Numbered from the stretch's first letter, positions 14,080-58,552 are shown. The stretch is 64,000 nt of DNA from an uncultured Gammaproteobacteria bacterium (GCA_964543035.1 CAZIVL010000001.1:367736-431735); one strand, 5' to 3'. The notes: generated from the sequence alone by a model not told the origin. Program-made: numbers and translations.

Positions 14080-15866
14080 AAACTAGTCGCAGCATGTCCA
14101 ATCTAGAGATCGCAAAGCTGTTGCGGTCAGTCTCAGCCGCTCTCGTCCTCTCAAATGCCAATAGATTTAGAGTTATTGCCTATGACAAAGCGGCCGACGC
14201 CATCGAGCACGCCAGCTCGGAGGTCAAAGATCTCTGGGACGACGGAAAGCTCAAGGATTTGGCAGGAGTTGGTGAAGGAATTGCTAGCTCTTTGGACGAA
14301 TTATTTTCGACTGGTCACATCAAGCATTTTGAAGAAATACTTGCTCCATTTCCAGAATCCGTCTTTGAGCTCATGGAAGTTCCGGGTATCGGTCCAAAAA
14401 ATGCTCTCAAATTTTCCAAAGCCTTTGGTATCACTCATGCCCACTCAGCCGTAAGTAAGCTCGAAAAAGCCGCCAAAAAAGGCGAGATTGCCAAGCTGGA
14501 AGGGTTTGGAGAGGACTCCCAGACCAGAATACTCCAGGGCATCACCGAATTATCTGGCCGGTCAAAGCGAATATTGTTGGACCAAGCCCATACTATCGCC
14601 GATTCGCTAATCGCCTACATGCAAAAAAATCCCCATGTCAAAAAAATTGATTATTTGGGCTCACTTAGGAGGCAAGCCAGCACCGTGGGAGATCTTGATT
14701 TCTCAGTCGCCACCGAACATCCAAAAGAAGTCATAGACCATTTCTGCAAGTATCCTCACAAATCTCGAGTTTTGGAAGCAGGAGAAAAGTCCGCCTCTCT
14801 AATACTTCCTGGGGATCATCAAGCCGATCTTATGGTCCAGCCTCCTGAAGCCTACGGATCACTCCTGCAGCACTTTACCGGATCCAAACATCACAATATT
14901 GCTCTGCGCGAGCTAGCTCTAAAAAAAGGTTTTTCTTTATCCGAGCACGGAATACGTCCACTAGGTCATGACGAGTCTGTAAAACCATACGACGATCCCA
15001 AATTGATAAAAATTCCGACCGAAGAAAAATTCTACAAATTCTTAGGACTCGACTGGATCCCGCCCGAGCTTCGGGAAGGCCGGGGTGAGATTGATGCTGC
15101 CAAAGCTCACACTCTCCCAAGATTGATCGAAGTAGGGGATATAAAAGGGGATCTCCAGCTCCATTGCAACTTCCCCATCGAGCCTAGTCACGATTTGGGA
15201 CAAGACCCGCCGGAAGAAATGGCCAAAATCGCCAAAACTCTAGGTTATGAATACATCGGACTGACCGATCACAATCCAAGCCTAGCCGGTCATACTGAAA
15301 AGCAGATTATTGATTTAGTAAAAAAGCGCTCAGAGGCCATCAGAAGCACCAAAGCCGGTGTCCACATCTTTGTCGGTCTCGAGATCGATATCCAGCCAGA
15401 TGGCAAATTGGCCCTTCCCGAGGCTGCTCTCGAGTATCTGGATTATGCTTGTGTATCCATACACAGCAGTTTCCGTCAGACCAGAGACCAGGCCACCACC
15501 CGTGTTCTTCGCGCTCTCGAGCACCCCAAAGTCAGGTTTCTTGCCCACCCGACCGGAAGACTATTGGGAGAGCGTGAAGGCGTAGAACTCGATTGGGATC
15601 AGATTTTTGATTTTTGTCTCAAGCATAATAAGTGGCTGGAGATCGATGGCTGGCCAAACCGTCTCGATCTTCCAGACGTGATTGCTCACGATGCGATCAA
15701 ACGAGGTATCAAACTAGTCGTAGACACGGACTCGCATGCAGCCGCTCAACTCCCCTTTATGAAATATGGCGTCTCAGTCGCCCGCCGTGCCTGGGCCACC
15801 CAAAAAGACATTATCAATACAAAGTCACTTCGAGAAATTCTCCCTCTTTTGTCATCCCGAGCGTAG
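14076..15866 (+). CDS. polX: DNA polymerase X family protein with C-terminal PHP domain
   Basis: HhH N-terminus, pol-beta-like palm ('GDLDFSVAT'), and a PHP domain ('GLTDHNP', 'HAAAQ'). Confidence 0.8.
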   Translation: MKTSRSMSNLEIAKLLRSVSAALVLSNANRFRVIAYDKAADAIEHASSEVKDLWDDGKLKDLAGVGEGIASSLDELFSTGHIKHFEEILAPFPESVFELMEVPGIGPKNALKFSKAFGITHAHSAVSKLEKAAKKGEIAKLEGFGEDSQTRILQGITELSGRSKRILLDQAHTIADSLIAYMQKNPHVKKIDYLGSLRRQASTVGDLDFSVATEHPKEVIDHFCKYPHKSRVLEAGEKSASLILPGDHQADLMVQPPEAYGSLLQHFTGSKHHNIALRELALKKGFSLSEHGIRPLGHDESVKPYDDPKLIKIPTEEKFYKFLGLDWIPPELREGRGEIDAAKAHTLPRLIEVGDIKGDLQLHCNFPIEPSHDLGQDPPEEMAKIAKTLGYEYIGLTDHNPSLAGHTEKQIIDLVKKRSEAIRSTKAGVHIFVGLEIDIQPDGKLALPEAALEYLDYACVSIHSSFRQTRDQATTRVLRALEHPKVRFLAHPTGRLLGEREGVELDWDQIFDFCLKHNKWLEIDGWPNRLDLPDVIAHDAIKRGIKLVVDTDSHAAAQLPFMKYGVSVARRAWATQKDIINTKSLREILPLLSSRA

Positions 15867-15908
15867 CCGAGGGATCCCTCCATTCCACTTCGTTCCAGTC
15901 GGGATGAC
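15851..15908. repeat. hairpin repeat family member R1 (GTCATCCCGA...TCGGGATGAC with inner ATCCC/GGGAT stem)
   Basis: Perfect 10-bp terminal inverted repeat; the polX stop codon TAG lies inside the element; it sits between convergent genes. Confidence 0.65.
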
Positions 15909-15909
15909 A

Positions 15910-17115
15910 TTACAACAAGAAAACGCCATCCTTGTATATTACTTTTTCACTTCCATCAGAAAGGATGGCCGTCACAGTCCTCTTGGTCGTACTGATCATA
16001 TCTGTGTGTACGCTCGAATCATTAAATCCCATTTCTTTCCATTGAGCAGGTTTAATTTTTGATGGATCACCATCGTAACTGTCTTGATATGCACTCCCCA
16101 GAGCAATGTGGGTATTTCCAAAAGGTCCTGAAATATTTTCATCAAATAGGGTTTCCGCCATAAATCGGTCTATTCTGGATAATCTCTTGTCAGTCAAAGA
16201 AAATTCCCCGATCTTGTCAGCATCTTTGGTGTCTATCATGGCTTTCAGCACGTCATAATTTTTATTAGCACTTGATTTGACGACTCGGCCATCTTTAAAT
16301 TCCAATCTTATCCCTTCAATCAGTGACCCATATCTATACAACGGCTGGTTAAATTCGATATATCCTTCCGTTCCTCGCCAGTCAGGACTGATAAATACCT
16401 CAAAAGAGGGGATATTTCGCCCCGATCCCCCCAGCCACTTTCTATGAGGACCAATTTTTATCTTCAGATCAACACCATCTCCCTCCACATGCAATTGAGA
16501 AACTGAGATACTGTTCAGCTTTGCTTTGATCTCATCATTTTTCTTTGTCACTTCTTTCCACTTGGCAATTGGGTCGGTTTCATCCAAAAAACAGGCTTTG
16601 ATTATCTGCTCCCAATACTCTGGGAGACTCATATTTGCTTCTTTTGCCATGGCCGGTGTACCAAAGAGAGCCAGAGTCCAGGTATATTTGCCATCATTTT
16701 CTTTCTTGTTTAGCCATTTTTTGATTGACCTGATTGCCTTTTGCCTTATCATAATTTTCTTCGGGTCCACTCCTTCAAGTTCGTGCAAATCAGTATCGGC
16801 AATGATCGTGATCGAGTGATCTATGGTGTCAGCCAGACCCTTGAGATATTTTTTGGGCTCAAATTTTAAGAATTCTTCATCAGCCAGCTCATATACCTCG
16901 CGCGACACATCATCAGGCAAATAGTTTGTAATATAGTGAGCCCTTGATCTAATCAATTGATTTCTGATTTCCACATATAGAGGTTTGGCGGCTTCATTTA
17001 TCGTAATCCGTACTACCTCACCAGGTCTTACGCCCTCGCCCGAGTTGAGGGCAAAGTTCACCAACACTTTCGCATACCGTTGCAAGATGACTTTACTTGG
17101 AGTAAAACTATTCAT
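15910..17115 (-). CDS. aminopeptidase, M29 (AmpS/PepS)-like
   Basis: About 400 aa with an M29-like N-terminus 'MNSFTPSKVILQRYAKVLVNFAL'. Internal Met chosen; the ORF could extend to 17223. Confidence 0.5.
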   Translation of the reverse strand: MNSFTPSKVILQRYAKVLVNFALNSGEGVRPGEVVRITINEAAKPLYVEIRNQLIRSRAHYITNYLPDDVSREVYELADEEFLKFEPKKYLKGLADTIDHSITIIADTDLHELEGVDPKKIMIRQKAIRSIKKWLNKKENDGKYTWTLALFGTPAMAKEANMSLPEYWEQIIKACFLDETDPIAKWKEVTKKNDEIKAKLNSISVSQLHVEGDGVDLKIKIGPHRKWLGGSGRNIPSFEVFISPDWRGTEGYIEFNQPLYRYGSLIEGIRLEFKDGRVVKSSANKNYDVLKAMIDTKDADKIGEFSLTDKRLSRIDRFMAETLFDENISGPFGNTHIALGSAYQDSYDGDPSKIKPAQWKEMGFNDSSVHTDMISTTKRTVTAILSDGSEKVIYKDGVFLL

Positions 17116-17673
17116 ATGGAATTGGTTTGGGTCATTATAGGTATAGGGGCAGTCGTAGTCTACTTCGTGATCGTCTACAACGATTTTGTTACTTCCAGAG
17201 CTCGCATTAGAGCTTCTATTCAAGAAATTGGCAATCAGCTCAAGCGTCAGACCGAGCTTCTGCCAAATTTGGAAACTTCAGCCAAGGCCTATCTCAAGCA
17301 CGAAAAAGATATCTTAAAGATGCTCTCAGATGCCAGGAAGATGACCGCCGCGGGTGAGGACGCATCTGAAAAGATCGCTCAGGTTCTGCCCAAGATCCAA
17401 GTAGTCGTGGAGAGCAATCCCGAGCTCAAGGGTGTAGATGTGATCACCAAGCTCATGGACGAGCTCAGGGACACTTCAGACAAGGTTATGTACAGTAGAA
17501 GGACTCTCATCGATCTCTCGGCCGACTACAATATCAAGCTGGCAACTTTCCCCACCAATCTTGTCGCCAAAGTCTTTGGCTTTACCCCCGAAAAGGGCTT
17601 AGATACTCCCACCTCAGGTGCTCATCTCACCGTTTCTGAATCAGACACTCACACTCCCAAGATTTCCCTGTAA
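17116..17673 (+). CDS. lemA: LemA family protein
   Basis: 'MELVWVIIGIGAVVVYFVIVYNDFV' TM start and 'LPNLETSAKAY' region; sits upstream of htpX. Confidence 0.7.
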   Translation: MELVWVIIGIGAVVVYFVIVYNDFVTSRARIRASIQEIGNQLKRQTELLPNLETSAKAYLKHEKDILKMLSDARKMTAAGEDASEKIAQVLPKIQVVVESNPELKGVDVITKLMDELRDTSDKVMYSRRTLIDLSADYNIKLATFPTNLVAKVFGFTPEKGLDTPTSGAHLTVSESDTHTPKISL

Positions 17674-17676
17674 TTC

Positions 17677-18789: not shown

Positions 18790-18814
18790 CACTCTCACTA
18801 ACTGACTGCCAAAT

Positions 18815-31370: not shown

Positions 31371-31407
31371 GTCATTCTGAGCGGAGCGTAGCGCAGTCGA
31401 AGAATCT
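31371..31407. repeat. hairpin repeat family member R2 (GTC-ATTCT-loop-AGAAT)
   Basis: Matches the family consensus 'GTCATxCTGAGCG...'; the stem has compensatory changes (ATTCT/AGAAT). Confidence 0.5.
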
Positions 31408-35822: not shown

Positions 35823-38132
35823 TTAACCCAACCCGAGTGGTCTTTTGCCAGACAGAAGCTTCCTGGCTTCCAGTATAACCACAAACAATCCCGCAGTTCC
35901 AAAACAGTACAAAAATGCAAAATTTGGTAGGGGAGTGATGTAGCCGGCGATCAAGGGGTGAATGACAAATGGGATGAGTGCCGCTGCTAGAAACGCCAGG
36001 TTTCCAAACATTTTCCAGGAGGAAAACACAGACCTGTGATTTATCCAGCAGTCAGTAAATATGACAAATTGCAGCAATATCATAGATGTAAACAGCACTC
36101 CGGAAGCCAGCCTACTTTCGAGTCCAAACGCCCAGGTGGAAGCAAAAGCCAGAAGAGACATTAGTAGTCCCACTGCTATCATGTACTTGGCCTCAGATCT
36201 ACCCAAGAACTGCTCTACGTTTCTGGGCAGTCCATACATGAGTCCCTGCACTTTGTCCGCAAATGCAAATGCTAGAGCCGGCAGACCATCCGTGACCAAG
36301 TTGATGTACAAGATCATAAACGGTGTCAGCATGGGTAGATCAAATAGAGCGGCGACAGTAATGTAGGCTACCTCACCCAGGTTGCAAGCCAGCAAAAACT
36401 TGATCGCTCCCACCAGGTTTGCAAATATATTTCTACCTTCTTCAATAGCATTGACCAGGGTCGCAAAATTGTCATCAGTTAGTATCATGTCCGCAGTCTG
36501 GCGGGCCACATCTGTCCCCAGCCTGCCCATAGCCACTCCCACGTCTGCTTGCTTGAGAGCCAGGACATCATTTACTCCGTCTCCTGTGACTGCCACCACT
36601 TCACCCATCTGTTGGTACAGTTTTACCAGTCTATATTTTTGTTCTGGCTCCGTCCTGGCAAATATTCGCACGCGGGGAAGTATGGCCAGCAGTTCCTCGT
36701 CCGAATAATCGTTCAGTTGAGCGCCCGTCAGGATATCCTCACCTTCGTGGATTATCCCCACTTCCCGGCCTATGGCCTCAGCCGTCAGCACATTGTCCCC
36801 TGTCACCATGACTGTTTTTATCCCAGCATGTTTGGTGGCCGCAATCGCGCCTTTTACTTCAGGTCTTACCGGGTCCGCAATCCCCACAAATCCCAAAAAT
36901 CGCAGCTTTCCGCTACCTTTTTTAGCAGCAAATGCGATCATCCGGTACCCCTGCTTGGCAAATTCCGAAAATTCTCTTTGGATCTTTTCTTTTTGGGTGA
37001 CAGTTTCCGATTTACACATGAAGAGGATCGACTCCGGCGATCCTTTCAGAAACACATATTTTTCAGATCCCTTGTGGACAGTCACTTCCATGGTCTTGGT
37101 CTTGGAGTCAAATGGTTTTACAGCCAATGTCTTCCATTCATCTCTGGTCTCAGATATGTTCCACCCCAGGTCCGCAGCCCAGTACAGAAGAGACCCTTCT
37201 GTGGGATCGCCAATGACATCAAATGTCCCGTGATCCACCTTGGTCACGACTGAAGCTGTCGAGCACAGTATTCCATTTAGAGCCATCAAGGACTCATCTT
37301 TTTTGGCCACACTCCAGACCTTTTTGACCCGCATATTATTGGTCGTCAGAGTCCCGGTCTTGTCAGTGGCAATGAGAGTCACAGCCCCCAGAGTCTCAAT
37401 AGCCGGCATTCTTCGCACGATGGCTTTCTTTCGAGCTAGTCTCTCCACACCCATGGCCAGAGTGATCGTCATAACCGAGGGCAAGCCCTCAGGGACTGCA
37501 GCTACAGCCAAAGACACAGCCAAGAGCAGTCCGTGTGGCAAAGGCTCTCCTTTCCAAAGAGTTATTGCCAGTATCGACACAGCCGCCAGCATTCCCAGTA
37601 AGCCCACTTGTCCGGTCAGTTTTGAGAGTTTTATTTGTAGGGGAGTCAGAGGATCTTTTATCTCGCCCAGTTTTTTGGCTATTCGGCCAAACTTTGTTTG
37701 GTCCCCTAGGCGAAGGACGGTCGCATACACTTGCCCTTTTGCCACGACTGTTCCCATGTATATTTCGTCATCATTTTTTTTGGCGACGGCCATGGACTCA
37801 CCTGTCAGGACTGACTCATCGAGTTCCAGGTTTGTGGATCCAGTCACCACGCAGTCAGCCGGCACCCGTCCTCCTTCTTCCAAAAATATCTTGTCACCGA
37901 TCGTAAGTTGTCTGCTATCTATCTCAGATTCCACCCCATCTCTGATCACCCTGACCATAAAGACCGACATTTTTCGCAGAGTAGCTAGAGCTTTTTCGGA
38001 CTTATATCCTTGATAAAAAGTGATGGCCGTATTCAGCATCACGATCCCGACTATCGCAATCGCATCAAACTGATCCCCAATCAGATAGCTGACAACCGCC
38101 GCCACCACCAGTAACCAGTTCAGTTTTCCCAT
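35823..38132 (-). CDS. cation-transporting P-type ATPase (type II, Ca2+/Mg2+-like)
   Basis: 'DKTGTLT' phosphorylation motif, 'TGDN' and 'GDGVNDVLALKQADVG' hinge. Confidence 0.85.
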   Translation of the reverse strand: MGKLNWLLVVAAVVSYLIGDQFDAIAIVGIVMLNTAITFYQGYKSEKALATLRKMSVFMVRVIRDGVESEIDSRQLTIGDKIFLEEGGRVPADCVVTGSTNLELDESVLTGESMAVAKKNDDEIYMGTVVAKGQVYATVLRLGDQTKFGRIAKKLGEIKDPLTPLQIKLSKLTGQVGLLGMLAAVSILAITLWKGEPLPHGLLLAVSLAVAAVPEGLPSVMTITLAMGVERLARKKAIVRRMPAIETLGAVTLIATDKTGTLTTNNMRVKKVWSVAKKDESLMALNGILCSTASVVTKVDHGTFDVIGDPTEGSLLYWAADLGWNISETRDEWKTLAVKPFDSKTKTMEVTVHKGSEKYVFLKGSPESILFMCKSETVTQKEKIQREFSEFAKQGYRMIAFAAKKGSGKLRFLGFVGIADPVRPEVKGAIAATKHAGIKTVMVTGDNVLTAEAIGREVGIIHEGEDILTGAQLNDYSDEELLAILPRVRIFARTEPEQKYRLVKLYQQMGEVVAVTGDGVNDVLALKQADVGVAMGRLGTDVARQTADMILTDDNFATLVNAIEEGRNIFANLVGAIKFLLACNLGEVAYITVAALFDLPMLTPFMILYINLVTDGLPALAFAFADKVQGLMYGLPRNVEQFLGRSEAKYMIAVGLLMSLLAFASTWAFGLESRLASGVLFTSMILLQFVIFTDCWINHRSVFSSWKMFGNLAFLAAALIPFVIHPLIAGYITPLPNFAFLYCFGTAGLFVVILEARKLLSGKRPLGLG

Positions 38133-39496
38133 CTATTTATCCTACCACTGCTGACCACCTTAATTTTTTTCATATTCTTGGGTTCGCGGATAAATCTTTT
38201 CAAGATCTTGTATGTATCCACATCAAATCGCCCAGAATTTTCTATCCACGCCTCTTCCCGGGCCTGGCCCAAGTAGCACCATTTATCAAACACATGCGCC
38301 TCATTATTTTCGTTTATGACGATCGGTCCACCAAACGGCCAATTGGCAATCTTATTTTCAGCGACCGCCATATCAAATCTTAAGTTGTAAAGTATGGGGT
38401 CCTCCTCACCAAGACATGCAGTGCACCGACCCAAATCAGCCTCAAAGCATGTCTTTCGCATCTTCTCGAGGCCAAGGAGCTTTGCGCACAGTCTTTGCTC
38501 CTTACACTTTTGTCTCATCCAGTCGGTGGCTTGACTGCGCGTCTTAAATACACCTACCGTTTTTTCATCCGGTCCCTCGCCTTCAGCAATCCTCATGGTT
38601 TTAAAGCCATTCTTGATTTCCAGTTCTACGAATACCAATTGATAGCTTTGCCTTAACATGCGGTTATGCAGAGGCTGAAGTTTTTTGATAAGCGACGCTT
38701 CTCTCAAAAAAGCTCCCAACTCTCCACTACACACTTCAGTCTCAATACTTGCCACCTCCGAAGACAGTCTCATCTCACGGGCATCGCGAAGCGAGGCAGA
38801 TAGATGAGATAGCACTCGGTCTTTGATATTTATACTTTTGCCCACATACAAAGGCATGCCACTTTCGCCGTAAAATATATAGACACCAGGTTCTGGTGGC
38901 AGTCTGTCTATATCTGATTGGGCTATTTTTTCTGGTGTAGATGGATGCAAAAGTAGGTCCCCCACGGTTTTTTCAAACAGGGTTGCACCCTTTTGTTTCT
39001 TGGCCTTTTTAAAAAAATTCCATATAGCCACTGCGTCGTCCAGAGCTCGATGTCTATTTTTTACCGTCAGGCCAAACCGGGCTGCCACCTCATCCAGATT
39101 ATGTCTATGGTATTCCGGATAGAGATGCCTAGAGAGTCTCACCGTACACAGCTGTCTGACTGTCAGTTTCTTTTGCAGCCTCCCAAACTCAGCTTTTACA
39201 AATCCATAGTCAAATCTGGCATTGTGAGCCACAAATACACAATCAGACATGAGTTCCTCGACCTCGTCTGCTATCTGGCGAAAAGTCGGAGCCCTCTCCA
39301 AGTCGCGTGTGGTGATGCCAGTCATTTGTGATATTTCCGGTGGCAGATATTGGTCTGGGTCCACAAGGCTCTGGTATTTGCTCGTGACTTTATTATTTTC
39401 GACTCGTATTAGTCCGATCTCGATTATCCTGTCCCGGGCACAGTTTCCGCCCGTAGTCTCGACATCAATAAAGGCAAATTTTTCCGGAAGATTCAT
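38120..39496 (-). CDS. fusion of DnaQ-like DEDDh 3'-5' exonuclease and GIY-YIG nuclease (Cho/UvrC-like)
   Basis: 'FAFIDVETTG' Exo I motif and 'FVAHNARFDYGF' Exo II/III; C-terminal 'GVYIFYGESGMPLYVGKS' GIY-YIG. Confidence 0.7.
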   Translation of the reverse strand: MNLPEKFAFIDVETTGGNCARDRIIEIGLIRVENNKVTSKYQSLVDPDQYLPPEISQMTGITTRDLERAPTFRQIADEVEELMSDCVFVAHNARFDYGFVKAEFGRLQKKLTVRQLCTVRLSRHLYPEYHRHNLDEVAARFGLTVKNRHRALDDAVAIWNFFKKAKKQKGATLFEKTVGDLLLHPSTPEKIAQSDIDRLPPEPGVYIFYGESGMPLYVGKSINIKDRVLSHLSASLRDAREMRLSSEVASIETEVCSGELGAFLREASLIKKLQPLHNRMLRQSYQLVFVELEIKNGFKTMRIAEGEGPDEKTVGVFKTRSQATDWMRQKCKEQRLCAKLLGLEKMRKTCFEADLGRCTACLGEEDPILYNLRFDMAVAENKIANWPFGGPIVINENNEAHVFDKWCYLGQAREEAWIENSGRFDVDTYKILKRFIREPKNMKKIKVVSSGRINRWEN

Positions 39497-46125: not shown

Positions 46126-47583
46126 ATGTACAAAATTTTTACCACCATCTTTATATTCTTTTTTTTCAGTTATGTCCCAGCATTAGCTGTTGTTGATCCA
46201 CTGGCCGTTCCCAACAACAAGTATGGGGTCCATATCTTAGAGCCCGGGGAGATTACAGCCGCGGCCAAGCTGGTCAATTCGTCCGGCGGGGACTGGGGCT
46301 ATGTGACGATCCCGATTAGAAGTAACGACCGGGACAAAGAAAAATGGCGTGAATTTTTCAAAAATGCTGCCAACCATCACATTATCCCCATCCTTCGCAT
46401 CACCACCTTTCCTGACAAATCTTCTTGGACGGCCCCAACTGCCGGCGATCTAGTCGACTTTGCCAACTTCTTAGACGAGCTGCCCTGGCCCACCAAAAAC
46501 CGCTACATAATTATTTTCAACGAGCCCAATCATTCCCAAGAGTGGGGCGGATATCTCTCGCCACTAGAGTATGCCAATCTCTTGACCGAAAGCAGCCGCA
46601 TATTCAAAAGCCGTAGCGAGGACTTCTTTCTCATTTCAGCCGGACTGGATATGTCCGCCCCCCAGACCAAGACTTCGCTGGATGCTCTCTATTATATTCG
46701 CGAGCTCAATCGCTTGAGACCCGGGTGGTTCAACTCAGTCGACGGTCTCTCCTTTCACGCCTATCCCAATCCGGCTTTTTCTGCCTCTCCTTTATCCAAG
46801 ACCAGATATGGTCCCAAGAGTTACACCTACGAGCTAGATCTTCTTTACAAAGCCGGTCTTGAAAAGGACAAACCCATTTTTATTACCGAAACTGGGACCA
46901 TCCTCCAAAATGATTTTTACAAAACAGCCTTTACAACTGTTTGGACAGAATCAAACATTGTCGCCATCACCCCATTTTTGCTTTTTGCCGGTTCTCCCGA
47001 TTTTGAAAAGTTTTCTCTCCTGGACAAAAATCATCAGCCCAAAGACACTTACAAGCAGATAATGGCCCTTCCAAAGTCAGTGGGAAGTCCACTACTAGCC
47101 ATCATCGAGCCCACAAGTGTTTCCGCACAATCCTCGTCCAGTGTCATCCTGAGCGTAGCGAAGGATCCAGTACAAAATTTTATTGAAGCTTTAAAAAAAT
47201 TCTTTTCTATATTTAAGTCATCTCGCACCCTTTCAATCGGTGATGACTCGCTTGAGGTAGAAATCAGAGACACTCCCAAAGAAAGGGCTCAAGGCTTATC
47301 AGGTAGACCTCCTCTGGCTCCAGGCCACGGTATGCTATTTATTTTTGCTGGCCCCGGTATTCAACCATTTTGGATGAAAGACATGAAATTTGCTCTGGAC
47401 TTTGTCTGGATCAGGGGCGGTGTCGTAGTCGAGCTGACAGAAGATGTGCCACCACCCACCAAAGAAAATCCCATCCCCCAAGTGATTATTCCCAAAGAGC
47501 CAGTGGATCAAGTACTAGAGGTCGCGGCGGGGACCATTGAGAGTCTGGGTCTGCGACTCGGCGACTACGTCACCTTGAACTAG
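46126..47583 (+). CDS. secreted protein: glycoside-hydrolase-like TIM-barrel-like domain fused to C-terminal DUF192 domain
   Basis: Signal peptide; 'IIFNEPN' acid/base-like motif; C-terminal 'GLSGRPPLAPGHGMLFIF...FWMKDMKFALDFVW' DUF192 signature. Confidence 0.5.
   Translation: MYKIFTTIFIFFFFSYVPALAVVDPLAVPNNKYGVHILEPGEITAAAKLVNSSGGDWGYVTIPIRSNDRDKEKWREFFKNAANHHIIPILRITTFPDKSSWTAPTAGDLVDFANFLDELPWPTKNRYIIIFNEPNHSQEWGGYLSPLEYANLLTESSRIFKSRSEDFFLISAGLDMSAPQTKTSLDALYYIRELNRLRPGWFNSVDGLSFHAYPNPAFSASPLSKTRYGPKSYTYELDLLYKAGLEKDKPIFITETGTILQNDFYKTAFTTVWTESNIVAITPFLLFAGSPDFEKFSLLDKNHQPKDTYKQIMALPKSVGSPLLAIIEPTSVSAQSSSSVILSVAKDPVQNFIEALKKFFSIFKSSRTLSIGDDSLEVEIRDTPKERAQGLSGRPPLAPGHGMLFIFAGPGIQPFWMKDMKFALDFVWIRGGVVVELTEDVPPPTKENPIPQVIIPKEPVDQVLEVAAGTIESLGLRLGDYVTLN
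47143..47170. repeat. hairpin repeat family member R3 (GTC-ATCCT-GAGCGTAGCGA-AGGAT-CCAG), read through in frame
   Basis: Identical core to the R4/R5 members; lies in the linker between the two domains and encodes 'VILSVAKDPV'. Confidence 0.65.
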
Positions 47584-48353: not shown

Positions 48354-50726
48354 ATGCCCAAACTCTTTGGTACTTCTGGTATCCGCGGGTCCTCCGAAGG
48401 ATTTTTTACAAATCAGTTTTGTCAGACTCTGGGAGAGGCATTTGGCAACTGGCTCAAGTCAAAAAATCGCGAAGGAGACGTGGCGATAGCGTATGACCCC
48501 AGAGACAGCAGTCCCAGGATCAAAGACGAATTTCTCAAAGGACTAGCGAGCACTGGCTACGAGATTTTAGACGAGGGCGTGATTCCCACTCCTGCATTGG
48601 CATATTTTGTAAACAAAAATCCCCATCTAGCAGGCGGGGTCATGATCACCGGTTCTCATATCACCTCAGATCTCAATGGTATCAAATTCTTTTTAGGTAG
48701 CGGCGAAATCCAAAAAACCCACGAAGTCGAAATCGAGAAAATAATCTCGTCTATTCCAATCACAAATCACCAATCACAAACAACCAACATCAAAGTTGAT
48801 TCCGCAGCTCGTGACTTATATCTCGATATGTTGGTGGGTCTTGCCAGTCTTCCCTACCCTGAGTGGACAGTCGCAGTAGATACAGCCAATGGTGCCCAGT
48901 CTGAGATCATCCGCCCGCTTTTTGAGAGACTCAGTCTCACGCTTGTGACGACCGGTGATTGTGACATCCAATCTCCTTATTTCGTTCCTCGTGATACCGA
49001 GGTTCAGACATCGACCGCTGACCTGCAAAAGCACGTTATCTCAAACAAAGCTGATTTAGGAGTAGCCTTCGATGCCGACGGCGACCGAGTAGTATTCATT
49101 GATCCTAAAGGCCAGTTTGTCCCGGGTGACTACTCATGCACACTGCTTGCTCGGGAGGATGATTCAGAAAAAATAGTTACCACAGTTAGTACGAGCTCGG
49201 TCGTGGATAGCATAGGCAAGCACATATTTCGCACTCCGGTGGGATCTCCATTTGTGACAGCCAAGATGCAAGAAGTCGGAGCCACTTTTGGCTTTGAGCC
49301 CAATGGTGGCAGTATCAGCTCAGATCTTCACTACAGTCGCGATGGGGGATCGACTTTTATTAAGCTTCTCAATCTCCTAAAAAAATCTGGCAAAAGCCTG
49401 GACGAACTGGTCTCCACCTTGCCCCACTACGCGATGTACAAAGACAAAATAGATTGCCCGGTCAACAAATATCAGCAGATTTACGATACTGTCTCGGAAA
49501 AATATTCAGATCACGAGCAAGACAAAACCGATGGCCTAAAGGTGTTTCTAAACAGTACAGACTGGCTGCTTTTCCGCGGATCTGGCAACGCTCCCGAGTT
49601 TAGAGTGATAGTCCAAGCTCACGCCGAAGCTACAGCCCGCGACCTCGCCCTCAAATCCCTAAAGCTCATAAAAAGCATAATCAATCCTAATAATGAAATA
49701 CAAAATACTAGATACAAGATACAAGATACATTAAATGTCCTGAGCTCCATCCGCCTCTTCCCCGACCAATGCGCTCAAGTCCTCTCAGATCAAGGGATTT
49801 TTCGGATCCCCAACATGTGTAGTCTGGTGGATAACATCGTAGTCTCTGGCATGGGCGGATCTGCCTTGGGTGGACGCATAATTGACGCTCTATCACGAAG
49901 GATTCTCAAAGTCCCTCTCTCCATCTCTACTCAATACAATTTGCCAAATTTTGTAAACTCAAAGTCACTGGTCATCATCTCGTCCTACTCAGGTGACACC
50001 CAGGAAACGGTCGAAAGTTTTCATGAAGCCAAAGCAAAAAATGCCCAGATTTTTGTCATTGCCACGGGGGGACAGCTGGCAAAGCTAGCAGCAGAATTCA
50101 ACGTCCCGATATATTTAGTAGATCCCATCCACAACCCCAGTGGTCAGCCGCGCCTAGGCTTAGGTTACAGCGTCATGTCCATGCTAGCTGTCCTCAACCG
50201 CTGTGGCCACATCAGAATTCCCCACAGTATCGACACTCTCCCCAGCTATCTAAAAGAGCACCAAGACGAAAGTCGGTTCGAAGCAGTTGCCCAAAAACTG
50301 AGTGGCAAGATCCCAATCTTGATATCCGGAGAGCATCTAGTAGGTAGTAGTCATGCCATAAAAAACATGTTCAACGAAAACAGCAAAACTTTTTGCGCAA
50401 GTTTCGACCTGCCTGAGGCCAATCATCATCTTCTAGAGGGCTTGCAATTTCCCAAGACCAATACAGACAATCTGGTGGCTGTCTTTGTAGGCTCACCTTA
50501 TTACAATCCTGAGCTAGGAAAGACCATCCTTGCCACAAAATCCGTGTTTGAAAAAAATCATATTCCAGTTGTAAATCTTGAGTTTGATTCTCCCAATCCT
50601 CTGACCGAAAGTCTGGAGTATCTCCAGGCAGGAGCTTTTATTTCATATTTCTTAGCTAGCCTCAATGGCGTTGACCCGGGCCCCATTCCCTATGTACACT
50701 GGTACAAGGATCAAATTAGTTTATGA
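48354..50726 (+). CDS. phosphomannomutase/phosphoglucomutase fused to phosphoglucose/phosphomannose isomerase (SIS domain)
   Basis: N-terminal 'FGTSGIRG' and 'TGSHITSD' PMM/PGM motifs over about 440 aa; C-terminal roughly 300 aa with a 'VVSGMGGSALGGRI' SIS/PGI-PMI motif. Confidence 0.6.
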   Translation: MPKLFGTSGIRGSSEGFFTNQFCQTLGEAFGNWLKSKNREGDVAIAYDPRDSSPRIKDEFLKGLASTGYEILDEGVIPTPALAYFVNKNPHLAGGVMITGSHITSDLNGIKFFLGSGEIQKTHEVEIEKIISSIPITNHQSQTTNIKVDSAARDLYLDMLVGLASLPYPEWTVAVDTANGAQSEIIRPLFERLSLTLVTTGDCDIQSPYFVPRDTEVQTSTADLQKHVISNKADLGVAFDADGDRVVFIDPKGQFVPGDYSCTLLAREDDSEKIVTTVSTSSVVDSIGKHIFRTPVGSPFVTAKMQEVGATFGFEPNGGSISSDLHYSRDGGSTFIKLLNLLKKSGKSLDELVSTLPHYAMYKDKIDCPVNKYQQIYDTVSEKYSDHEQDKTDGLKVFLNSTDWLLFRGSGNAPEFRVIVQAHAEATARDLALKSLKLIKSIINPNNEIQNTRYKIQDTLNVLSSIRLFPDQCAQVLSDQGIFRIPNMCSLVDNIVVSGMGGSALGGRIIDALSRRILKVPLSISTQYNLPNFVNSKSLVIISSYSGDTQETVESFHEAKAKNAQIFVIATGGQLAKLAAEFNVPIYLVDPIHNPSGQPRLGLGYSVMSMLAVLNRCGHIRIPHSIDTLPSYLKEHQDESRFEAVAQKLSGKIPILISGEHLVGSSHAIKNMFNENSKTFCASFDLPEANHHLLEGLQFPKTNTDNLVAVFVGSPYYNPELGKTILATKSVFEKNHIPVVNLEFDSPNPLTESLEYLQAGAFISYFLASLNGVDPGPIPYVHWYKDQISL
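48758..48792. repeat. 7-bp-period tandem array (AATCACA AATCACC AATCACA AACAACC AACATCA)
   Basis: In frame in the PMM domain; encodes 'ITNHQSQTTNI'. Confidence 0.65.
49698..49732. repeat. 7-bp-period tandem array, ATACNNN family, 5 units (ATACAAA ATACTAG ATACAAG ATACAAG ATACATT)
   Basis: At the PMM/PGI domain junction; encodes 'EIQNTRYKIQDT'. Confidence 0.75.
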
Positions 50727-53002
50727 AGTACGTAAAGTGGTTCAAAGAATTAAGTCGTGAGGATATTCCTATTGCCGGAGGCAAAGGAGCAAATCTGGGT
50801 GAGCTCACAGGCGCCGGTGTTCCAGTGCCCGATGGCTTTGTAGTTCTTTCAAATGCCTACTTTGATTTTCTCGATTACAACAAATTGCGTTTAGAGATCC
50901 ACAAGATTCTCAAGTCGCGTGATGCCGCCGATCCCGCCCAGCTAAAAACCGCTTCAGAGCAAATCCAAAAGCTTCTCAAAAAAGCCGAGATTCCCCCCGA
51001 GATAGCGCGCGAAGTCTTTGAGTCGTATCACAAATTGGGTAGCAAGACCCCAGTCGCTGTTCGCTCTTCTGCCACCGCAGAAGACTTGCCCGAGGCTTCA
51101 TTTGCCGGCCAGCAGGAGTCTTACCTAAATATCTTGGGAGACGCCAATGTGCTCCTCAAGGTCAAAGAATGCTGGATGTCTCTGTTTGGTCAAAGAAGTA
51201 TTTTTTACCGTGAGCAAAAACACTTTGATCATTTCAAGGTGGGTATCGCAGTCCCTGTCCAGACCATGGTCCAATCCGAAGTATCAGGCGTCATGTTTAC
51301 CACCGATCCGATTTCCCAAGACAAAAACAAAGTCGTAATTGAGGCCATCTATGGATTGGGTGACTATATCGTCCAAGGCGTCGTGACTCCTGACCATTAC
51401 GAAGTATCAAAAGCTGGTGAGAGTATTATCCAAAAACAGATTGCCCTCCAAGAAGTCGCCGAAGTCAGGACCACCCAGGGCGTAAAAGAGATAAAAATTC
51501 CTAAAAAAGAGGGTGAAAAACAAAAGATCTCCGATGCAAACATTGTTAAGTTGGCCCAAATTGGCAAAAAGATTCATCAGCATTATCTATTTCCCCAAGA
51601 CATCGAGTGGGCATATGCCAAAAACAAGCTCTATATCACCCAAGCCCGCCCCATCACCACACTATCCTCATCCTCACAAACTATCACACAACCCACTACT
51701 CACAATTTAACCGCGATACTCACAGGTGCCCCCGCTTCTCCCGGTCTCATCTCAGGCCCAGTAAAAATAATTGCCAATATAAAAAATATTGACCGCATCA
51801 AAGCCGGCGACATCATGGTTACCGATATGACCACCCCGGATTTTGTGCCAGCTATGAAAAGAGCTGGCGCCATCATTACCAATCGCGGTGGCCTGACTTC
51901 TCATGCGGCCATAGTTTCCCGTGAGCTCGGTGTTCCTTGCGTCGTAGGTACAAAAGATGCCACCCAAAAGCTAGTCGATGGCATGGTGGTAACTGTTGAT
52001 GGTGCCAAAGGCGAAATCTACAAAGGCGCAGTTTCAAGGCAATCCAAAAAGCTTTCCATGACTGAGAAACTGGAAAACTTGGCATCTGAAAAACTTCACA
52101 CTGCCACTAAGTTGTATGTCAATTTGGCCGAACCAGATCTTGCCAAAAAGATCTCCGCACACCACATCGATGGCGTAGGCCTGCTTCGGGCCGAGTTTAT
52201 GATCGCAGGCATTGGCGTCCACCCCAAAAAATTATTAGCAGAAGGAAAAGGCGAACAATTTATTTCCAAGCTCACAGAGCAGATAGCCACTTTTTGTGAA
52301 AGTTTTTCCCCGAGACCCGTCATTTACAGAGCCACCGATTTCAAGACCAATGAATATCGAGCCTTGAAGGGCGGAGAAGCCTACGAGCCAGAGGAATCAA
52401 ACCCAATGCTAGGTTTCAGAGGCGCCATCAGATACATCAAGAGTCCAGAGGTTTTTGCCCTGGAACTAGAAGCGATTAAGCGCGTAAGAAACAAACACAA
52501 TCTCAAAAATCTTTGGCTCATGATCCCATTTGTCTCGACGGTTTCAGAGCTTGTTGAGGTAAAAAAGATTGTCGCCGCCAGTGGTCTATATAGGAGTAGT
52601 AATTTCAAGCTCTTTATGATGGTCGAGATACCCTCAAACGTGATTCTGTTGGACGACTTTTTGGATGTGGGTATCGATGGTGTATCTATTGGCAGCAACG
52701 ATCTGACAATGTTAATCTTGGGTACAGATCGTGACAATTCTGAGGTCGCCTCGCAGTTTGACGAGAGAAACCCCGCCGTCATGTGGGCTCTCGAAAAGAC
52801 TGTCAGGACTTGTGCCAAAAGAGGTGTCATGTGCGGCATCTGCGGCCAAGCTCCTAGTGAGTATCCAGAGTTAGTCGAAAAATTGGTTGAGTGGGGAGTG
52901 ACCAGTATTTCAGTCAATCCCGATGCCATCGGTCGCACTCGCCAGATCATATTCAATGCTGAACATAGTCTTATTACTAAGAAATCTAAATCGTCATCCT
53001 GA
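50723..53002 (+). CDS. ppsA: phosphoenolpyruvate synthase (pyruvate, water dikinase)
   Basis: 'IAGGKGANLGEL' ATP-grasp N-terminus, 'GGLTSHAAIVSRELGVPCVVG' phospho-His domain and PEP-utilising C-terminus. Confidence 0.85.
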   Translation: MKYVKWFKELSREDIPIAGGKGANLGELTGAGVPVPDGFVVLSNAYFDFLDYNKLRLEIHKILKSRDAADPAQLKTASEQIQKLLKKAEIPPEIAREVFESYHKLGSKTPVAVRSSATAEDLPEASFAGQQESYLNILGDANVLLKVKECWMSLFGQRSIFYREQKHFDHFKVGIAVPVQTMVQSEVSGVMFTTDPISQDKNKVVIEAIYGLGDYIVQGVVTPDHYEVSKAGESIIQKQIALQEVAEVRTTQGVKEIKIPKKEGEKQKISDANIVKLAQIGKKIHQHYLFPQDIEWAYAKNKLYITQARPITTLSSSSQTITQPTTHNLTAILTGAPASPGLISGPVKIIANIKNIDRIKAGDIMVTDMTTPDFVPAMKRAGAIITNRGGLTSHAAIVSRELGVPCVVGTKDATQKLVDGMVVTVDGAKGEIYKGAVSRQSKKLSMTEKLENLASEKLHTATKLYVNLAEPDLAKKISAHHIDGVGLLRAEFMIAGIGVHPKKLLAEGKGEQFISKLTEQIATFCESFSPRPVIYRATDFKTNEYRALKGGEAYEPEESNPMLGFRGAIRYIKSPEVFALELEAIKRVRNKHNLKNLWLMIPFVSTVSELVEVKKIVAASGLYRSSNFKLFMMVEIPSNVILLDDFLDVGIDGVSIGSNDLTMLILGTDRDNSEVASQFDERNPAVMWALEKTVRTCAKRGVMCGICGQAPSEYPELVEKLVEWGVTSISVNPDAIGRTRQIIFNAEHSLITKKSKSSS
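51672..51710. repeat. degenerate 7-bp-period array, ACAACNN family (…ACAACCC ACTACTC ACAATTT)
   Basis: In the ppsA inter-domain linker; encodes 'QTITQPTTHNLTA'. Confidence 0.5.
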
Positions 53003-53055
53003 GGCGCACCGAAGGATCCAGGTTTCTCTGGATTCTTCACTACGTTCGGAATGAC
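52993..53055. repeat. hairpin repeat family member R4 (GTCATCCTGAGGCGCACCGAAGGATCCAG… ending …GGAATGAC)
   Basis: Contains the ppsA stop codon TGA; inner ATCCT/AGGAT stem, a second GGATCCAG/CTGGATTC stem, and imperfect terminal inverted repeats. Confidence 0.65.
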
Positions 53056-53071
53056 AATATAGACTATACAT

Positions 53072-54340: not shown

Positions 54341-54553
54341 CACCACACAAACAAACTTCTAAAAAATCGTCGTAGGCAGCTTCGCAACACACCAACTGCG
54401 ACTGAAAAAATTTTGTGGAAAGAATTACGAAACAATAAATTAGGGGTAAAATTCACAAGACAATATAGTATTGACGGCTATGTGCTTGATTTTTATTGTC
54501 AGAGCAAACGAAGAAGTGATAACCGATCTAGTGGAAACATTAAATATCATTAG
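54341..54553 (+). pseudogene. DUF559 (Vsr-like endonuclease domain) gene remnant, no start codon and truncated C-terminus
   Basis: Frame encodes 'KNRRRQLRNTPTATEKILWKELRNNKLGVKFTRQYSIDGYVLDFYC', the DUF559 N-terminal half. It opens right after the eno stop, has no Met, and diverges before the catalytic region. Confidence 0.5.
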
Positions 54554-54560
54554 AAACGAG

Positions 54561-54585
54561 ATCCCCTCTTAGAGTAAGAGGGGAT
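54561..54585. repeat. perfect 10-bp stem hairpin (ATCCCCTCTT-agagt-AAGAGGGGAT)
   Basis: Direct reading; immediately follows the DUF559 remnant; no U-run after it. Confidence 0.6.
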
Positions 54586-54616
54586 TATAGGGGTGTTATT
54601 GATGTAAACTATATTC

Positions 54617-56245: not shown

Positions 56246-56291
56246 CCCATAGTCTTGATATTCATTTTTTAGAAGCGTAAAATATCCATTT

Positions 56292-56564: not shown

Positions 56565-57189
56565 TAACCTCGCCCTTGATCTTCATTCCAGTTTGATATT
56601 CCTCAATACTTTCATGTATCTTGGTCAGCTCTTGCGCCACTACGATCTTGGCCTCGGGATATCTCTCTTTTATTTCCTCCAGAGTCTTTTGGGCTCTTTC
56701 GGGGGATTCATAAATAACATTCGTCATCTCAGGCAGCAGTTCCCATTTTTTGTTGAGAAATCCATGGAACACAAATTTGTTGGTAGGCAGTCCCGCGGCG
56801 GACAGTGCGGCAGCCGCCGCAAATGGTCCTGGTATAGGCGAGACCGTGACTGCCGCCTCACGAGCAGCCCGGACGACTTTGAATCCCGGATCAGATAGTA
56901 AGGGAGTCCCAGCATCTGATACCAAGGCTACATCACTTTCCTGCAGCGCCGTCAGTATTTTCGGGACGGTTTCCAGTTCATTAAAATCCCGGACCGATAT
57001 ATATTTCCTCTCAGGAATCTCCCCCGTCAGATTTGTCCCGTATCGCTCCTCCAGTATTTTGAGTAGGTTTCCCGTATGTCTCGTATCCTCACAAGCAATC
57101 ACCGGTGTGCTCAAAAGTATCTTGATCGCCCGTATAGATATATCTTCCAGGTTGCCAACAGGCGTTGCTACTACATATAATGTCCCCAT
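56542..57189 (-). CDS. rsmI: 16S rRNA (cytidine1402-2'-O)-methyltransferase RsmI (short form)
   Basis: 'LYVVATPVGNLEDISIRA...ACEDTRHT' tetrapyrrole-methylase-fold N-terminus. Confidence 0.7.
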   Translation of the reverse strand: MGTLYVVATPVGNLEDISIRAIKILLSTPVIACEDTRHTGNLLKILEERYGTNLTGEIPERKYISVRDFNELETVPKILTALQESDVALVSDAGTPLLSDPGFKVVRAAREAAVTVSPIPGPFAAAAALSAAGLPTNKFVFHGFLNKKWELLPEMTNVIYESPERAQKTLEEIKERYPEAKIVVAQELTKIHESIEEYQTGMKIKGEVTILVYLG

Positions 57190-57844
57190 GCTATCTCAGA
57201 TTATAAAGCCTTTTGAAGATATTCTCCTAAATCTTGCCCACACCATCCCCCTTGAGCTCTTTGTCCCCATTGGTTCTTTTGTAGAAGAAATCGTGGCTCC
57301 CATTCCCTCACCCCTGATTATGATTACCGCTGGATCCATTGCTTCCTTTCAGGGTCGCACCATTGCATCATTATTCGTTCTGTCGCTTTTGGGAGCCATT
57401 GGCAAGACCATAGGCGCCGTCATCCTCTATACACTTGCTGACAAAGGAGAAGATTTTGTCTTCAAACACTTTGGTAAATACCTGGGCTTCAGCCACAAAG
57501 ATGTGGAATCAATTGGTAAGCATTTCAATGGGGGAATCAAAGATGACCTGATTCTCTTGGGTATCAGAAGTTTGCCTATTATCCCAAGTGCTCCAGTCTC
57601 TTTGGTCTGCGGTGTGATCAAGATCAAGTTTCGCACCTTTGTGACCTCTACATTTGTAGGTACCATCATTCGCGACTCGTTGTTTTTATACTTCGGCTAC
57701 AGTGGACTGGCCAGCCTCAATGCCGTCGTTCATGGTGTAGAAGCCTTTGAATCAGTCATGCAGATCGTCATCTTCCTATCTCTTGGCATCCTCATCGGCT
57801 GGGCCTACTATCACCGCCACAAAAGATCAAAAGCAAAAAATTAA
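57188..57844 (+). CDS. DedA/TVP38 family membrane protein
   Basis: 'VEEIVAPIPSPLIMITAGSIA' DedA signature. Internal start chosen because the upstream 5' part of the ORF is antisense to rsmI. Confidence 0.65.
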   Translation: MLSQIIKPFEDILLNLAHTIPLELFVPIGSFVEEIVAPIPSPLIMITAGSIASFQGRTIASLFVLSLLGAIGKTIGAVILYTLADKGEDFVFKHFGKYLGFSHKDVESIGKHFNGGIKDDLILLGIRSLPIIPSAPVSLVCGVIKIKFRTFVTSTFVGTIIRDSLFLYFGYSGLASLNAVVHGVEAFESVMQIVIFLSLGILIGWAYYHRHKRSKAKN

Positions 57845-58476
57845 TTTATCGTTTGATATCTTCGTATTACCCCCACGACTTTCCCCTGTATTTTGACTTT
57901 TGTTACAAATATCGGGGACATGGTGGAGTTGGCTGGTTCCAGTCTGACCCGAGTCGCTTCTTTGAAATATCTTTTCAAAGTGGCAAAACCATTGTCTAGG
58001 AGGGCCACGACCACCTCACCATCGCGGGCTGTCTCTACTTGTTCGATTACTACATAGTCACGGTCAAATATCCCCGCCTCGATCATCGAGTCGCCTTTTA
58101 CTTGCAGTACAAAGCAACGTTTTTTGGATGACACCATAGTAGGAGGCACCGAAAACGTCGCATTGGGATCTGTAAATGGCTCGATCGGTTGGCCAGCCGC
58201 AATAAATCCTAGGACTGGTAGGTCGACCGCCGAGGCTGAAGACATTCTCTCAGCCGCATTCTTATCTAGTATCTCCATGCCGCGCACCGCGCCATCAAAT
58301 CTCTTGATCACGCCTTTTTTCTCCATCGCTTCCAGATGCTCGTGCACTGTAGCCAGAGAGGAGACGCCCAAAGCTTTAGCAATTTCCTGAAGCGTTGGGG
58401 AAAATCCGTGGGATTGGATATATTGAGCGACGAAGTCTAAAATCTGTCTTTGTCTGTTGTAAAGAACCACTGGCAT
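57841..58476 (-). CDS. lexA: LexA repressor
   Basis: N-terminal wHTH 'GFSPTLQEIAKALGVSS', the 'AAGQP' cleavage region, and the 'VKGDSMIEAGI' Ser/Lys-dyad protease domain. Confidence 0.85.
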   Translation of the reverse strand: MPVVLYNRQRQILDFVAQYIQSHGFSPTLQEIAKALGVSSLATVHEHLEAMEKKGVIKRFDGAVRGMEILDKNAAERMSSASAVDLPVLGFIAAGQPIEPFTDPNATFSVPPTMVSSKKRCFVLQVKGDSMIEAGIFDRDYVVIEQVETARDGEVVVALLDNGFATLKRYFKEATRVRLEPANSTMSPIFVTKVKIQGKVVGVIRRYQTIN

Positions 58477-58483
58477 ATGTACA

Positions 58484-58512
58484 ATATAATCCGAATGTTA
58501 CCCAAATGTCAA
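58484..58512 (-). promoter_or_regulatory. sigma70-like promoter for lexA (TTGACA-17-TTATAT on the minus strand)
   Basis: Exact -35 and a good -10 about 8 nt upstream of the lexA ATG. Confidence 0.35.
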
Positions 58513-58522
58513 CACGCAATTT

Positions 58523-58552
58523 GTCATCCTGAACGACAGTGAAGGATCCAGT
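58523..58552. repeat. hairpin repeat family member R5 (GTC-ATCCT-GAACGACAGTGA-AGGAT-CCAG) in the lexA/uvrB divergent intergenic region
   Basis: Same flanks and stem as R3/R4 with a different loop. Confidence 0.6.

Follow-up and report, generated by a model that had tools for sequence, protein, structure and literature searches.

The DNA examined here is a 64-kb window (the whole stretch that was analysed, 64,000 nt; GCA_964543035.1, CAZIVL010000001.1:367736-431735), and our subject is a family of short hairpin repeats dispersed among its genes. Homologues of its UvrB place the host among the candidate phyla radiation (CPR/Patescibacteria), within the Microgenomates and near Amesbacteria and Gottesmanbacteria. 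Nine hairpin units form six elements (E1–E6), three of them inverted doublets (E1, E4 and E6) and three single units (E2, E3 and E5). A first-pass annotation had described a family of five copies, and on re-reading the sites their coordinates and sequence features were as described. The copies are real, but the count was too low, since the doublet at 59249–59308 within uvrB had been overlooked. The elements and their units are listed below, with the matches of a covariance model that is described further on.

15851–15908, no strand: doublet E1, 58 nt, occupying the gap between the convergent polX and M29 aminopeptidase genes
15851–15876, plus strand: unit 1a, left arm of E1, GTCATCCCGAGCGTAGCCGAGGGATC; model match 15849–15879, 39.4 bits, E 2e-8
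15881–15908, minus strand: unit 1b, right arm of E1, degenerate, GTCATCCCGACTGGAACGAAGTGGAATG; model match 15870–15910 (minus), 24.9 bits, E 1.6e-4
31371–31406, plus strand: unit 2, the single unit E2, with a long distal segment; model match 34.3 bits, E 4.7e-7
47143–47170, plus strand: unit 3, the single unit E3, in the open reading frame (ORF) 46126–47583; model match 43.5 bits
52993–53055, no strand: doublet E4, 63 nt, of an asymmetric subfamily
52993–53020, plus strand: unit 4a, left arm of E4, GTCATCCTGAGGCGCACCGAAGGATCCAG; model match 35.7 bits
53028–53055, minus strand: unit 4b, right arm of E4, GTCATTCCGAACGTAGTGAAGAATCCAG; model match 36.8 bits; the enolase start lies 17 nt further on
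58523–58550, plus strand: unit 5, the single unit E5; model match 43.8 bits, E 1.3e-9
59249–59308, no strand: doublet E6, 60 nt or 20 codons, in frame within uvrB, residues DVIPTKTVGRAEGSLDYARDD
59249–59286, plus strand: unit 6a, left arm of E6, with the long distal hairpin GACC-GTA-GGTC; model match 18.2 bits, E 0.01
59283–59308, minus strand: unit 6b, right arm of E6, GTCATCCCGAGCGTAGTCGAGGGATC; model match 40.3 bits, E 1.1e-8

Two of the six elements lie entirely within coding sequence (E3 and E6), and two more donate stop codons (E1 and E4). The polX gene (14076–15866) terminates in TCA TCC CGA GCG TAG (...SSRA-TAG) within E1, the TAG falling at the hairpin tip of unit 1a, and on the other side unit 1b stops 1 nt short of the stop codon of the M29 peptidase (15910–15912). 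Likewise, ppsA (50723–53002) terminates in TCA TCC TGA (...SSS-TGA) within E4. The element had been said to supply the last codons and the stop of both genes, and the ends of these reading frames bear this out; it had also been said to sit exactly between polX and the aminopeptidase gene, and 15851–15908 indeed fills that gap. E2 lies in the 63 nt that separate rplS from a gene for a PMT_2 glycosyltransferase, and E5 lies, as annotated, in the divergent lexA/uvrB spacer, 11 nt before the uvrB ATG. E3 is translated in frame as VILSVAKDP, in the interdomain linker between the N-terminal domain and the DUF192 domain encoded by its ORF, and E6 sits in a UvrB loop, after the residues PLTG, whose length is hypervariable across 60 relatives. 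The longer outer inverted repeats that had been reported for E1 and E4 do exist as inverted ends, but they are not extras: they are a second, inverted copy of the unit. The two arms of E6 meet at a GGGATCCC centre, and E4 combines a left arm ATCCT/AGGAT, a right arm ATTCY/RGAAT and the centre GGATCCAGG-loop-CTGGATTC. The predicted fold of E1 is a long DNA hairpin (z = -2.6).

The consensus unit is (T)GTCAT-YCY-GA, a small distal hairpin (often C-GNA-G) and GA-RGR-ATC-C(AG), as exemplified in the window by tGTCAT-CCT-GA-GCGTAGC-GA-AGG-ATC-CAG. Units are about 25–38 nt long, the arms of E1 and E4 being about 26 nt each. What had been annotated as a loop is itself structured, with tandem G.A/A.G mismatches followed by a distal stem of 2–4 bp that carries a loop of the G-N-A type. 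We call units of this design GA-type. Their inner segment is a hairpin of free sequence and length (GCGNAGC, ACGNAGT, GGACCCGCTTGCGGGTCC and GACC-GTA-GGTC). The motif GTCATYCYGA occurs nine times on both strands of the window against 0.69 expected from shuffled sequence (highest shuffle 4), and all nine matches fall within the elements. When the whole window was searched with filters off, a covariance model derived from 76 units recovered precisely nine units at the cut-off of E ≤ 0.01 (E 1e-9 to 0.01). One further match of 15 nt at 63060–63074 (GTCATCGATCT, E = 0.15) was taken as chance. GTCAT opens all nine window units and ATC closes eight, the degenerate arm at 15881–15908 closing with AATG; the three bases that follow are CAG in five units and CCT in three. 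Across the 76-unit alignment, GTC, both AT and the C are unchanging.

The hairpin structure is under strong selection, as covariation over hundreds of copies makes plain. Units were collected from about 300 loci with a search pattern in which the flanks and both GA steps are fixed and the inner segment and the two stem positions that vary are left free. Among 281 distinct units, stem pair 3 is C:G in 149, T:A in 111, G:C in 11 and A:T in 1 (Fisher p = 3e-67), and the pair departs from Watson-Crick in only eight, four of which are T:G wobbles; stem pair 5 is C:G in 94, T:A in 170 and otherwise in 13 (Fisher p = 2e-60). In units from loci picked without regard to the repeat (n = 114), Watson-Crick pairing holds in 113 and 112 units at the two stem pairs. 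Within the 76-unit alignment, 95.9% of cells are paired against 85% in shuffles and 12–48% when the 3' partner is slid, and double-sided changes number 74 against 22.5 in shuffles. The first-pass proposal that the co-varying stem implies a selected secondary structure is thus upheld, because pairing-preserving changes persist in hundreds of copies. The two arms of a doublet are often unlike (ATCCT/AGGAT and ATTCT/AGAAT), with changes compensatory within their own arm. Since pairing is maintained within each arm at the cost of complementarity between the arms, the conserved object is the local hairpin.

GA-type units are widespread. A search with an exact pattern worth about 42 bits (GTCATYCYGAGCGNAGN{1,2}GARGGATC) gave 108 matching stretches in viral contigs of IMG/VR and at least 120 in GTDB contigs (one genome per species). 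More than 15 phyla are represented among the GTDB matches listed, including Acidobacteriota, Chloroflexota, Gemmatimonadota, Planctomycetota, Omnitrophota, Verrucomicrobiota, Nitrospirota, Bacteroidota and Bacillota, together with several proteobacterial classes, Saccharibacteria and other Patescibacteria. The prevailing layout in other genomes is a (+,-) inverted pair of 60–150 nt end to end, and singlets are common too. Full-text literature searches with the unit DNA strings returned only chance matches to unrelated primers, and a full-text search for palindromic in-frame elements in Patescibacteria returned nothing.

Comparison with relatives shows that the elements, and the inverted doublets above all, have moved recently, as judged from sites that are empty in one genome and filled in another close to it. 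The closest relative (L001, UvrB 88% identical) is 48 nt shorter exactly at E6 and has no E5 in its lexA-uvrB spacer. A second relative, L310 (GCA_964356705.1), is 75% identical in the DUF192 protein and syntenic over 12 kb. It keeps E3 intact at the same codon positions; it has no E4, and its ppsA ends in ITRKSK before the stop, where the window has ITKKSKSSS. L310 in turn holds four elements of its own, namely two doublets, a single unit at the end of enolase (...SS-TGA) and a minus-strand unit at 3464. For the doublet at 2783 and the enolase-end unit, L310 could be aligned to empty sites in the window, and the absence of the doublet at 10990 and the unit at 3464 was inferred from the corresponding window genes, which hold no unit. 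E4 and the two L310 doublets occupy unrelated sites and share one asymmetric 63–64-nt design, which argues that the doublet was copied as a unit. We know of no earlier comparative evidence of recent movement than these filled and empty sites and the 63-nt doublets with their conserved asymmetry.

E3 bears on another earlier proposal, in which the element was read through inside a coding sequence and had created the fusion of a hydrolase-like gene to a DUF192 gene. The read-through stands (VILSVAKDP). The proposal that the element made the fusion is refuted, since the two-domain architecture of about 485 aa is found in all 120 homologues listed (47–82% identity; about ten carry an extra domain). 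Among 40 aligned homologues, the VIL...AKDP segment is present only in the closest three (67–82% identity), and those at or below 59% identity have unrelated linkers and no element. Because the fusion is common to homologues that lack the element, E3 is an insertion into an existing interdomain linker.

Several further features of these sites were observed. In L001, a gene for a 23S rRNA-intervening-sequence protein (PF05635; 830–1201) lies between lexA and uvrB at the position of E5, and the lexA-uvrB spacer is an insertion hotspot. The ppsA-eno spacer of L310 (7497–7599) carries a different, GC-rich and partly palindromic segment of about 80 nt (GCACGCAGGCACTTGTGGACCGCACGCGCAGCGGGTCCGCGCG...) within an AT-rich genome. 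In L312, a relative with 82% identity, the orthologue of E3 (about 3190–3300) is split by a nested in-frame insert of 27 nt (CCATCCCTACGGGATGCAATTAA...), itself a small hairpin, which yields VIMPSLRDAINVAKDP. Two other Microgenomates, L314 (3001–5082; 2885–3000) and L315 (3001–5073; 2890–3000), carry a different palindrome in frame in the same UvrB loop, of the type CCCCCTCTTA...TAAGAGGGGG...GGAGAGGGTGATA, and another copy in their lexA-uvrB spacer; these are the slots that E6 and E5 occupy in the window. A perfect hairpin with an 11-bp stem at 54561–54585 of the window (ATCCCCTCTTA-gag-TAAGAGGGGAT), in an unusually long eno/iPGM spacer, looks like this second palindrome family. Just upstream of it, at 54413–54553, lies a truncated remnant of a DUF559 (Vsr-like endonuclease) gene (Pfam E 4.7e-8, profile positions 21–54 of 109).

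The gene found in company with the units encodes a small GIY-YIG nuclease. Clustering of the ORFs of 120 aa or more in 229 loci that bear the repeat showed recurrent phage structural families and no recurrent transposase. This clustering missed the associated gene because the gene is shorter than 100 aa; it was found through ORFs between inverted units 300–2500 nt apart. In two loci (L197 and L200), two inverted units enclose a segment of about 380–400 nt whose sole ORF encodes a GIY-YIG protein of about 90 aa, and PF01541 is the only domain of such unit-flanked proteins. In the reverse test, metagenome loci were chosen by GIY-YIG protein similarity only (583 of 600 candidates were related, and the best 80 of the 583 were kept). 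Of these 80 loci, 56 have a unit terminus no more than 150 nt upstream of the gene, 61 have one downstream, 45 have one on either side and about eight have none, the usual arrangement being unit(+) ... ORF ... unit(-). The 80 loci (199 kb) hold 160 GA-type units, distributed over 60 of them. The L197 protein is 47.8% identical to the SsnA orthologue of Neisseria gonorrhoeae (E 1e-16), whose gene has six canonical NTS repeats around it within 600 nt. A cyanobacterial plasmid homologue (55% identity) carries GA-type units on its flanks. The nearest solved structures are UPF0213 proteins (E 7e-8), an NCBIfam scan of the GIY-YIG proteins gave no family, and the protein has a very large family, with 7549 of 7563 candidates at E ≤ 1e-10. 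Including L197 and L200, unit-ssn-unit cassettes were observed in four loci, the others being L170 and L317.

Some cassettes have additional features. In L296 (1187–1290), L283 (1273–1340 and 1871–1940), L252, L265 and L297, the ssn cassette is flanked by tandem arrays of half-sites with a period of 19–30 nt, which contain only the 5' half of the unit (GTCATYCTGA and about 10 nt), run into a complete unit and are mirrored on either side of the ssn gene; this is the region of reported Ssn cutting. L317, from a Planktothrix agardhii plasmid (NZ_LR882964.1, 18256–19716), holds an Ssn-like gene and eight GA-type pattern matches at six distinct sites, and the gene lies in a defence island, with an MmeI-type restriction-modification gene on one side and drmA, which encodes the DISARM helicase, on the other. 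Ssn proteins of GA-type cassettes include WP_083616022.1, from this plasmid, and P0241 of Ca. Aquicultor. Two Ssn-like proteins (P0265 and P0307) have N-terminal extensions that are translated flanking repeat (MCHSERSEES... and ...PVILSEAKNL...), so gene callers routinely run into units. The window itself encodes a 458-aa protein with DnaQ-like 3'-5' exonuclease and GIY-YIG domains (38120–39496, minus strand) in a Cho/UvrC-like architecture. It was the sole window GIY-YIG in the ssn-directed searches and is not an Ssn homologue.

The system in which these nucleases were described offers a frame for the repeats. In Neisseria, the NTS repeat CGTCATTCCCGCGMAVGCGGGAATCYRG follows the pattern CGTCAT-TCCC-GCGMAVGC-GGGA-ATC-YRG, overlaps the older dRS3 repeat and, with related repeats, belongs to the "Ssn-related motifs" (SRM) that flank ssnA, a gene for a 94-aa single-domain GIY-YIG protein; Rickettsia is among the SRM-rich genera (Chenal et al., Nat Commun 2025, PMC11893778). 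In the genome-wide census of that study, 29% of ssn genes had no SRM close to them. SsnA binds the NTS as single-stranded DNA (ssDNA) only and cuts a few nucleotides upstream, leaving double-stranded DNA, RNA and the reverse strand untouched; binding and cleavage were demonstrated for the Neisseria and Wolbachia enzymes, each on its own repeats (PMC11893778). In the NTS, the critical positions are the three bases that precede the palindrome on its 5' side and the C that directly follows it (PMC11893778). The equivalent positions, GTC and C, are unchanging in GA-type units. The same study noted that the repeat-ssnA-repeat arrangement resembles an insertion sequence and drew the analogy with repetitive extragenic palindromic (REP) sequences and their associated tyrosine transposases (RAYT), offering mobility as a hypothesis only (PMC11893778).

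We therefore consider it likely that the elements of the window belong to a variant class within the NTS/SRM family of Chenal et al. (2025), the Ssn-related hairpin repeats. Under this explanation, a single-stranded unit would form a stem of 5 bp (A-T-Y-C-Y / R-G-R-A-T), followed by a tandem G.A/A.G step and by a distal hairpin that is typically C-GNA-G, all framed by the oriented and unchanging 5' GTC and 3' C (then C-A-G in this lineage). The commonest distal tip, GCGNAGC, is an extraordinarily stable DNA mini-hairpin (PMC13037366), a point in favour of DNA over RNA. Single-domain Ssn nucleases of about 90 aa would recognise such hairpins as ssDNA only and nick a few nucleotides upstream. 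A cognate Ssn presumably acts on the GA-type variant and may mobilise these repeats, and the host genome probably encodes, or once encoded, such an enzyme. The repeats would exist as unit-ssn-unit cassettes and, far more commonly, as ORF-less singlets and inverted doublets, the window holding ORF-less forms only. Doublets would spread whole, and survivors in a compact CPR (Microgenomates) genome would remain where they are tolerated, at gene 3' ends, in short spacers, in an interdomain linker and in the hypervariable loop of UvrB.

Several observations weigh against this assignment. The published SRM search sequence, HGTCWYN(0-2)YYVSBRHN(0-5)WNVSBRGN(0-2)RNCYNB, a heuristic derived from 29 genomes, matches the canonical NTS and the six gonococcal copies, yet none of the nine window units fits it, and it finds no site in the 199 kb of the 80 GIY-YIG-picked loci. 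The pattern misses GA-type units because the GA step and the distal hairpin make them too long, and the GA-type class consequently falls outside the operational definition of the paper. Neither tblastn nor a hidden Markov model built from 85 Ssn-like proteins detected an Ssn homologue, be it in the 64-kb window or in the fragments from relatives. The folding energies of single units, calculated with DNA parameters, are about those of shuffles (z about -1 to +1); we do not use them as evidence because the nearest-neighbour model gives no credit to G.A steps or GNA triloops, and the structural argument rests on covariation. The pattern-picked loci from IMG/VR and GTDB had GCGNAG fixed, so their loop statistics are biased, those of the 114-unit subset being unbiased. 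Lastly, in three comparisons of filled and empty sites, whose flanks have diverged, no target-site duplication, target motif or defined insertion mechanism was legible.

Ssn-recognised ssDNA hairpins could also be kept for the benefit of the host, where cleavage would tune recombination or transformation near certain genes, as proposed for Neisseria. N. meningitidis without ssnA is transformed about five-fold more with NTS-bearing DNA and not with NTS-mutated DNA (PMC11893778). A retained function would also suit the hairpin of E3, which is kept in L310 at 75% identity despite being translated, and the strong co-orientation of singlets within loci. This alternative nonetheless seems unlikely to us, as presence and absence vary among close relatives at most sites, placement is opportunistic (stop codons, linkers and a variable loop), many copies reside in phage contigs and no ssn gene lies near any copy in the window.

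A structured RNA, be it an intrinsic terminator, a stabiliser of mRNA 3' ends or a regulator in the 5' untranslated region, is a far less probable account of the hairpins. They do stand at gene ends (E1 and E4) and in a 5' untranslated region (E5), all three window singlets (E2, E3 and E5) are in sense orientation, and stem covariation alone cannot separate RNA from DNA. However, no T-run follows any unit of the window and E5 has no terminator-like site; Rfam at its gathering threshold finds only tRNAs in the whole window, and a permissive Rfam search of 63 kb of repeat-rich loci and the E5/E6 region returned nothing beyond sub-threshold noise of microRNA-precursor and snoRNA models. Two elements lie within coding sequences, and SsnA leaves RNA of the same sequence unbound (PMC11893778). 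Doublets are strand-symmetric, so that one arm of a transcript would have U.C/C.U in place of G.A/A.G. Single units are strongly co-oriented within one locus, but they stand either way round relative to genes in other genomes (150 same and 138 opposite with a longest-ORF caller; 115 and 143 with a caller based on third-position GC content); the test is weak, but this pattern is more in keeping with an effect of replication strand or lineage than with a role at the transcript level. The earlier suggestion of a terminator or mRNA-stability hairpin accordingly fails on the missing T-runs, mixed orientation, symmetric doublets and lack of an Rfam match, while its companion suggestions of a REP/MITE-like element or a protein-binding site came near, given the REP-like behaviour and the link to Ssn and its ssDNA hairpins.

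Classical REP sequences or their mosaics (bacterial interspersed mosaic elements, BIME, or REPIN) moved by a RAYT of the HUH Y1 type, or miniature inverted-repeat transposable elements (MITE) derived from a DDE insertion sequence, would account for hairpin units of about 25 nt, inverted doublets and singlets, an intergenic bias, an oriented 5' tag like a tetranucleotide and, since enterobacterial REPs also have them (Nunvar 2010 Table 1, PMC2817692), GCGNAGC tips, but this is the most improbable reading of all, because the sole unit-bounded gene found encodes a GIY-YIG protein of about 90 aa and not a Y1 or DDE transposase, no transposase recurs among the ORFs of at least 120 aa from the 229 loci, the inverted ends have no DDE parent among those ORFs or between inverted units, the 5' tag is GTCAT and not GTAG, and REPs are lineage-specific whereas the GA-type unit is nearly identical over more than 15 phyla among the matches listed.

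The Ssn/SRM assignment invites a bolder version, which we regard as possible though doubtful: GA-type doublets may be REPIN-like non-autonomous mobile elements that are copied in trans by Ssn through an ssDNA intermediate, across most phyla and their phages. We know of no GIY-YIG-based, transposition-like mechanism demonstrated so far. If the proposal were true, Ssn-driven copying of doublets would be able to remodel essential proteins in frame, as seen here in UvrB. More generally, moving hairpins in gene-dense genomes rewrite gene ends, both stops and C-termini, and insert in frame in essential proteins. The kind of element is not categorically new; what is added is a class missed by the published motif, evidence for mobility from the comparison of relatives and the in-frame remodelling of essential CPR proteins. 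A previously unannotated CPR repeat is thereby placed in the recently found Ssn/SRM system, and the published motif overlooks a very large, phylum-spanning class with a GA step and a mini-hairpin tip, which is found alongside Ssn-like genes in their thousands and is frequent in phage contigs. Ssn enzymes are under development as site-specific ssDNA nucleases, and GA-type units would add one more specificity class to them. For gene calling, strings such as VILSEAKD, SSRA before a stop, HPERSEGS and ...YARDD at protein termini or loops come from repeats.

Among known systems, the window units are closest to NTS/SRM. Shared features are the oriented 5' GTCAT, a palindrome that starts and ends with AT, the following C-YRG (here CAG), dispersed copies in tens to hundreds, repeat-ssn-repeat cassettes, a wide phylogenetic spread and a single-domain GIY-YIG partner protein of about 90 aa, 48% identical to the gonococcal orthologue. 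Unlike NTS, the GA-type stem is broken by a tandem G.A/A.G step and then continues in a variable distal mini-hairpin, the layout is mainly that of inverted doublets, the host is a CPR bacterium and no ssn gene is present in the 64-kb window. Location differs as well, with two of the six window elements wholly in coding sequence and two more giving stops, against 2% of NTS within genes in N. meningitidis (PMC11893778).

The likeness to REP, BIME and REPIN sequences lies in behaviour: hairpin units of about 25 nt, oriented by a 5' tag and in some REPs tipped with GCGNAGC, inverted doublets that are apparently the replicating unit and singlets that are likely remnants, a single small gene flanked by repeats, and recognition of an ssDNA hairpin. 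The REPIN concept is said to go back to Bertels and Rainey in 2011. In contrast to REPs, the GA-type enzyme is GIY-YIG and not HUH Y1, the tag is GTCAT and not GTAG, and the sequence is conserved across phyla instead of being private to a lineage. Finally, Ogata et al. reportedly described in 2000 the Rickettsia palindromic elements (RPE), selfish palindromes that lie in frame within protein-coding genes. RPE are longer, at about 100–150 bp, and the likeness is one of description only, but in both cases short palindromes sit in frame in conserved, essential proteins at surface positions where they are tolerated.

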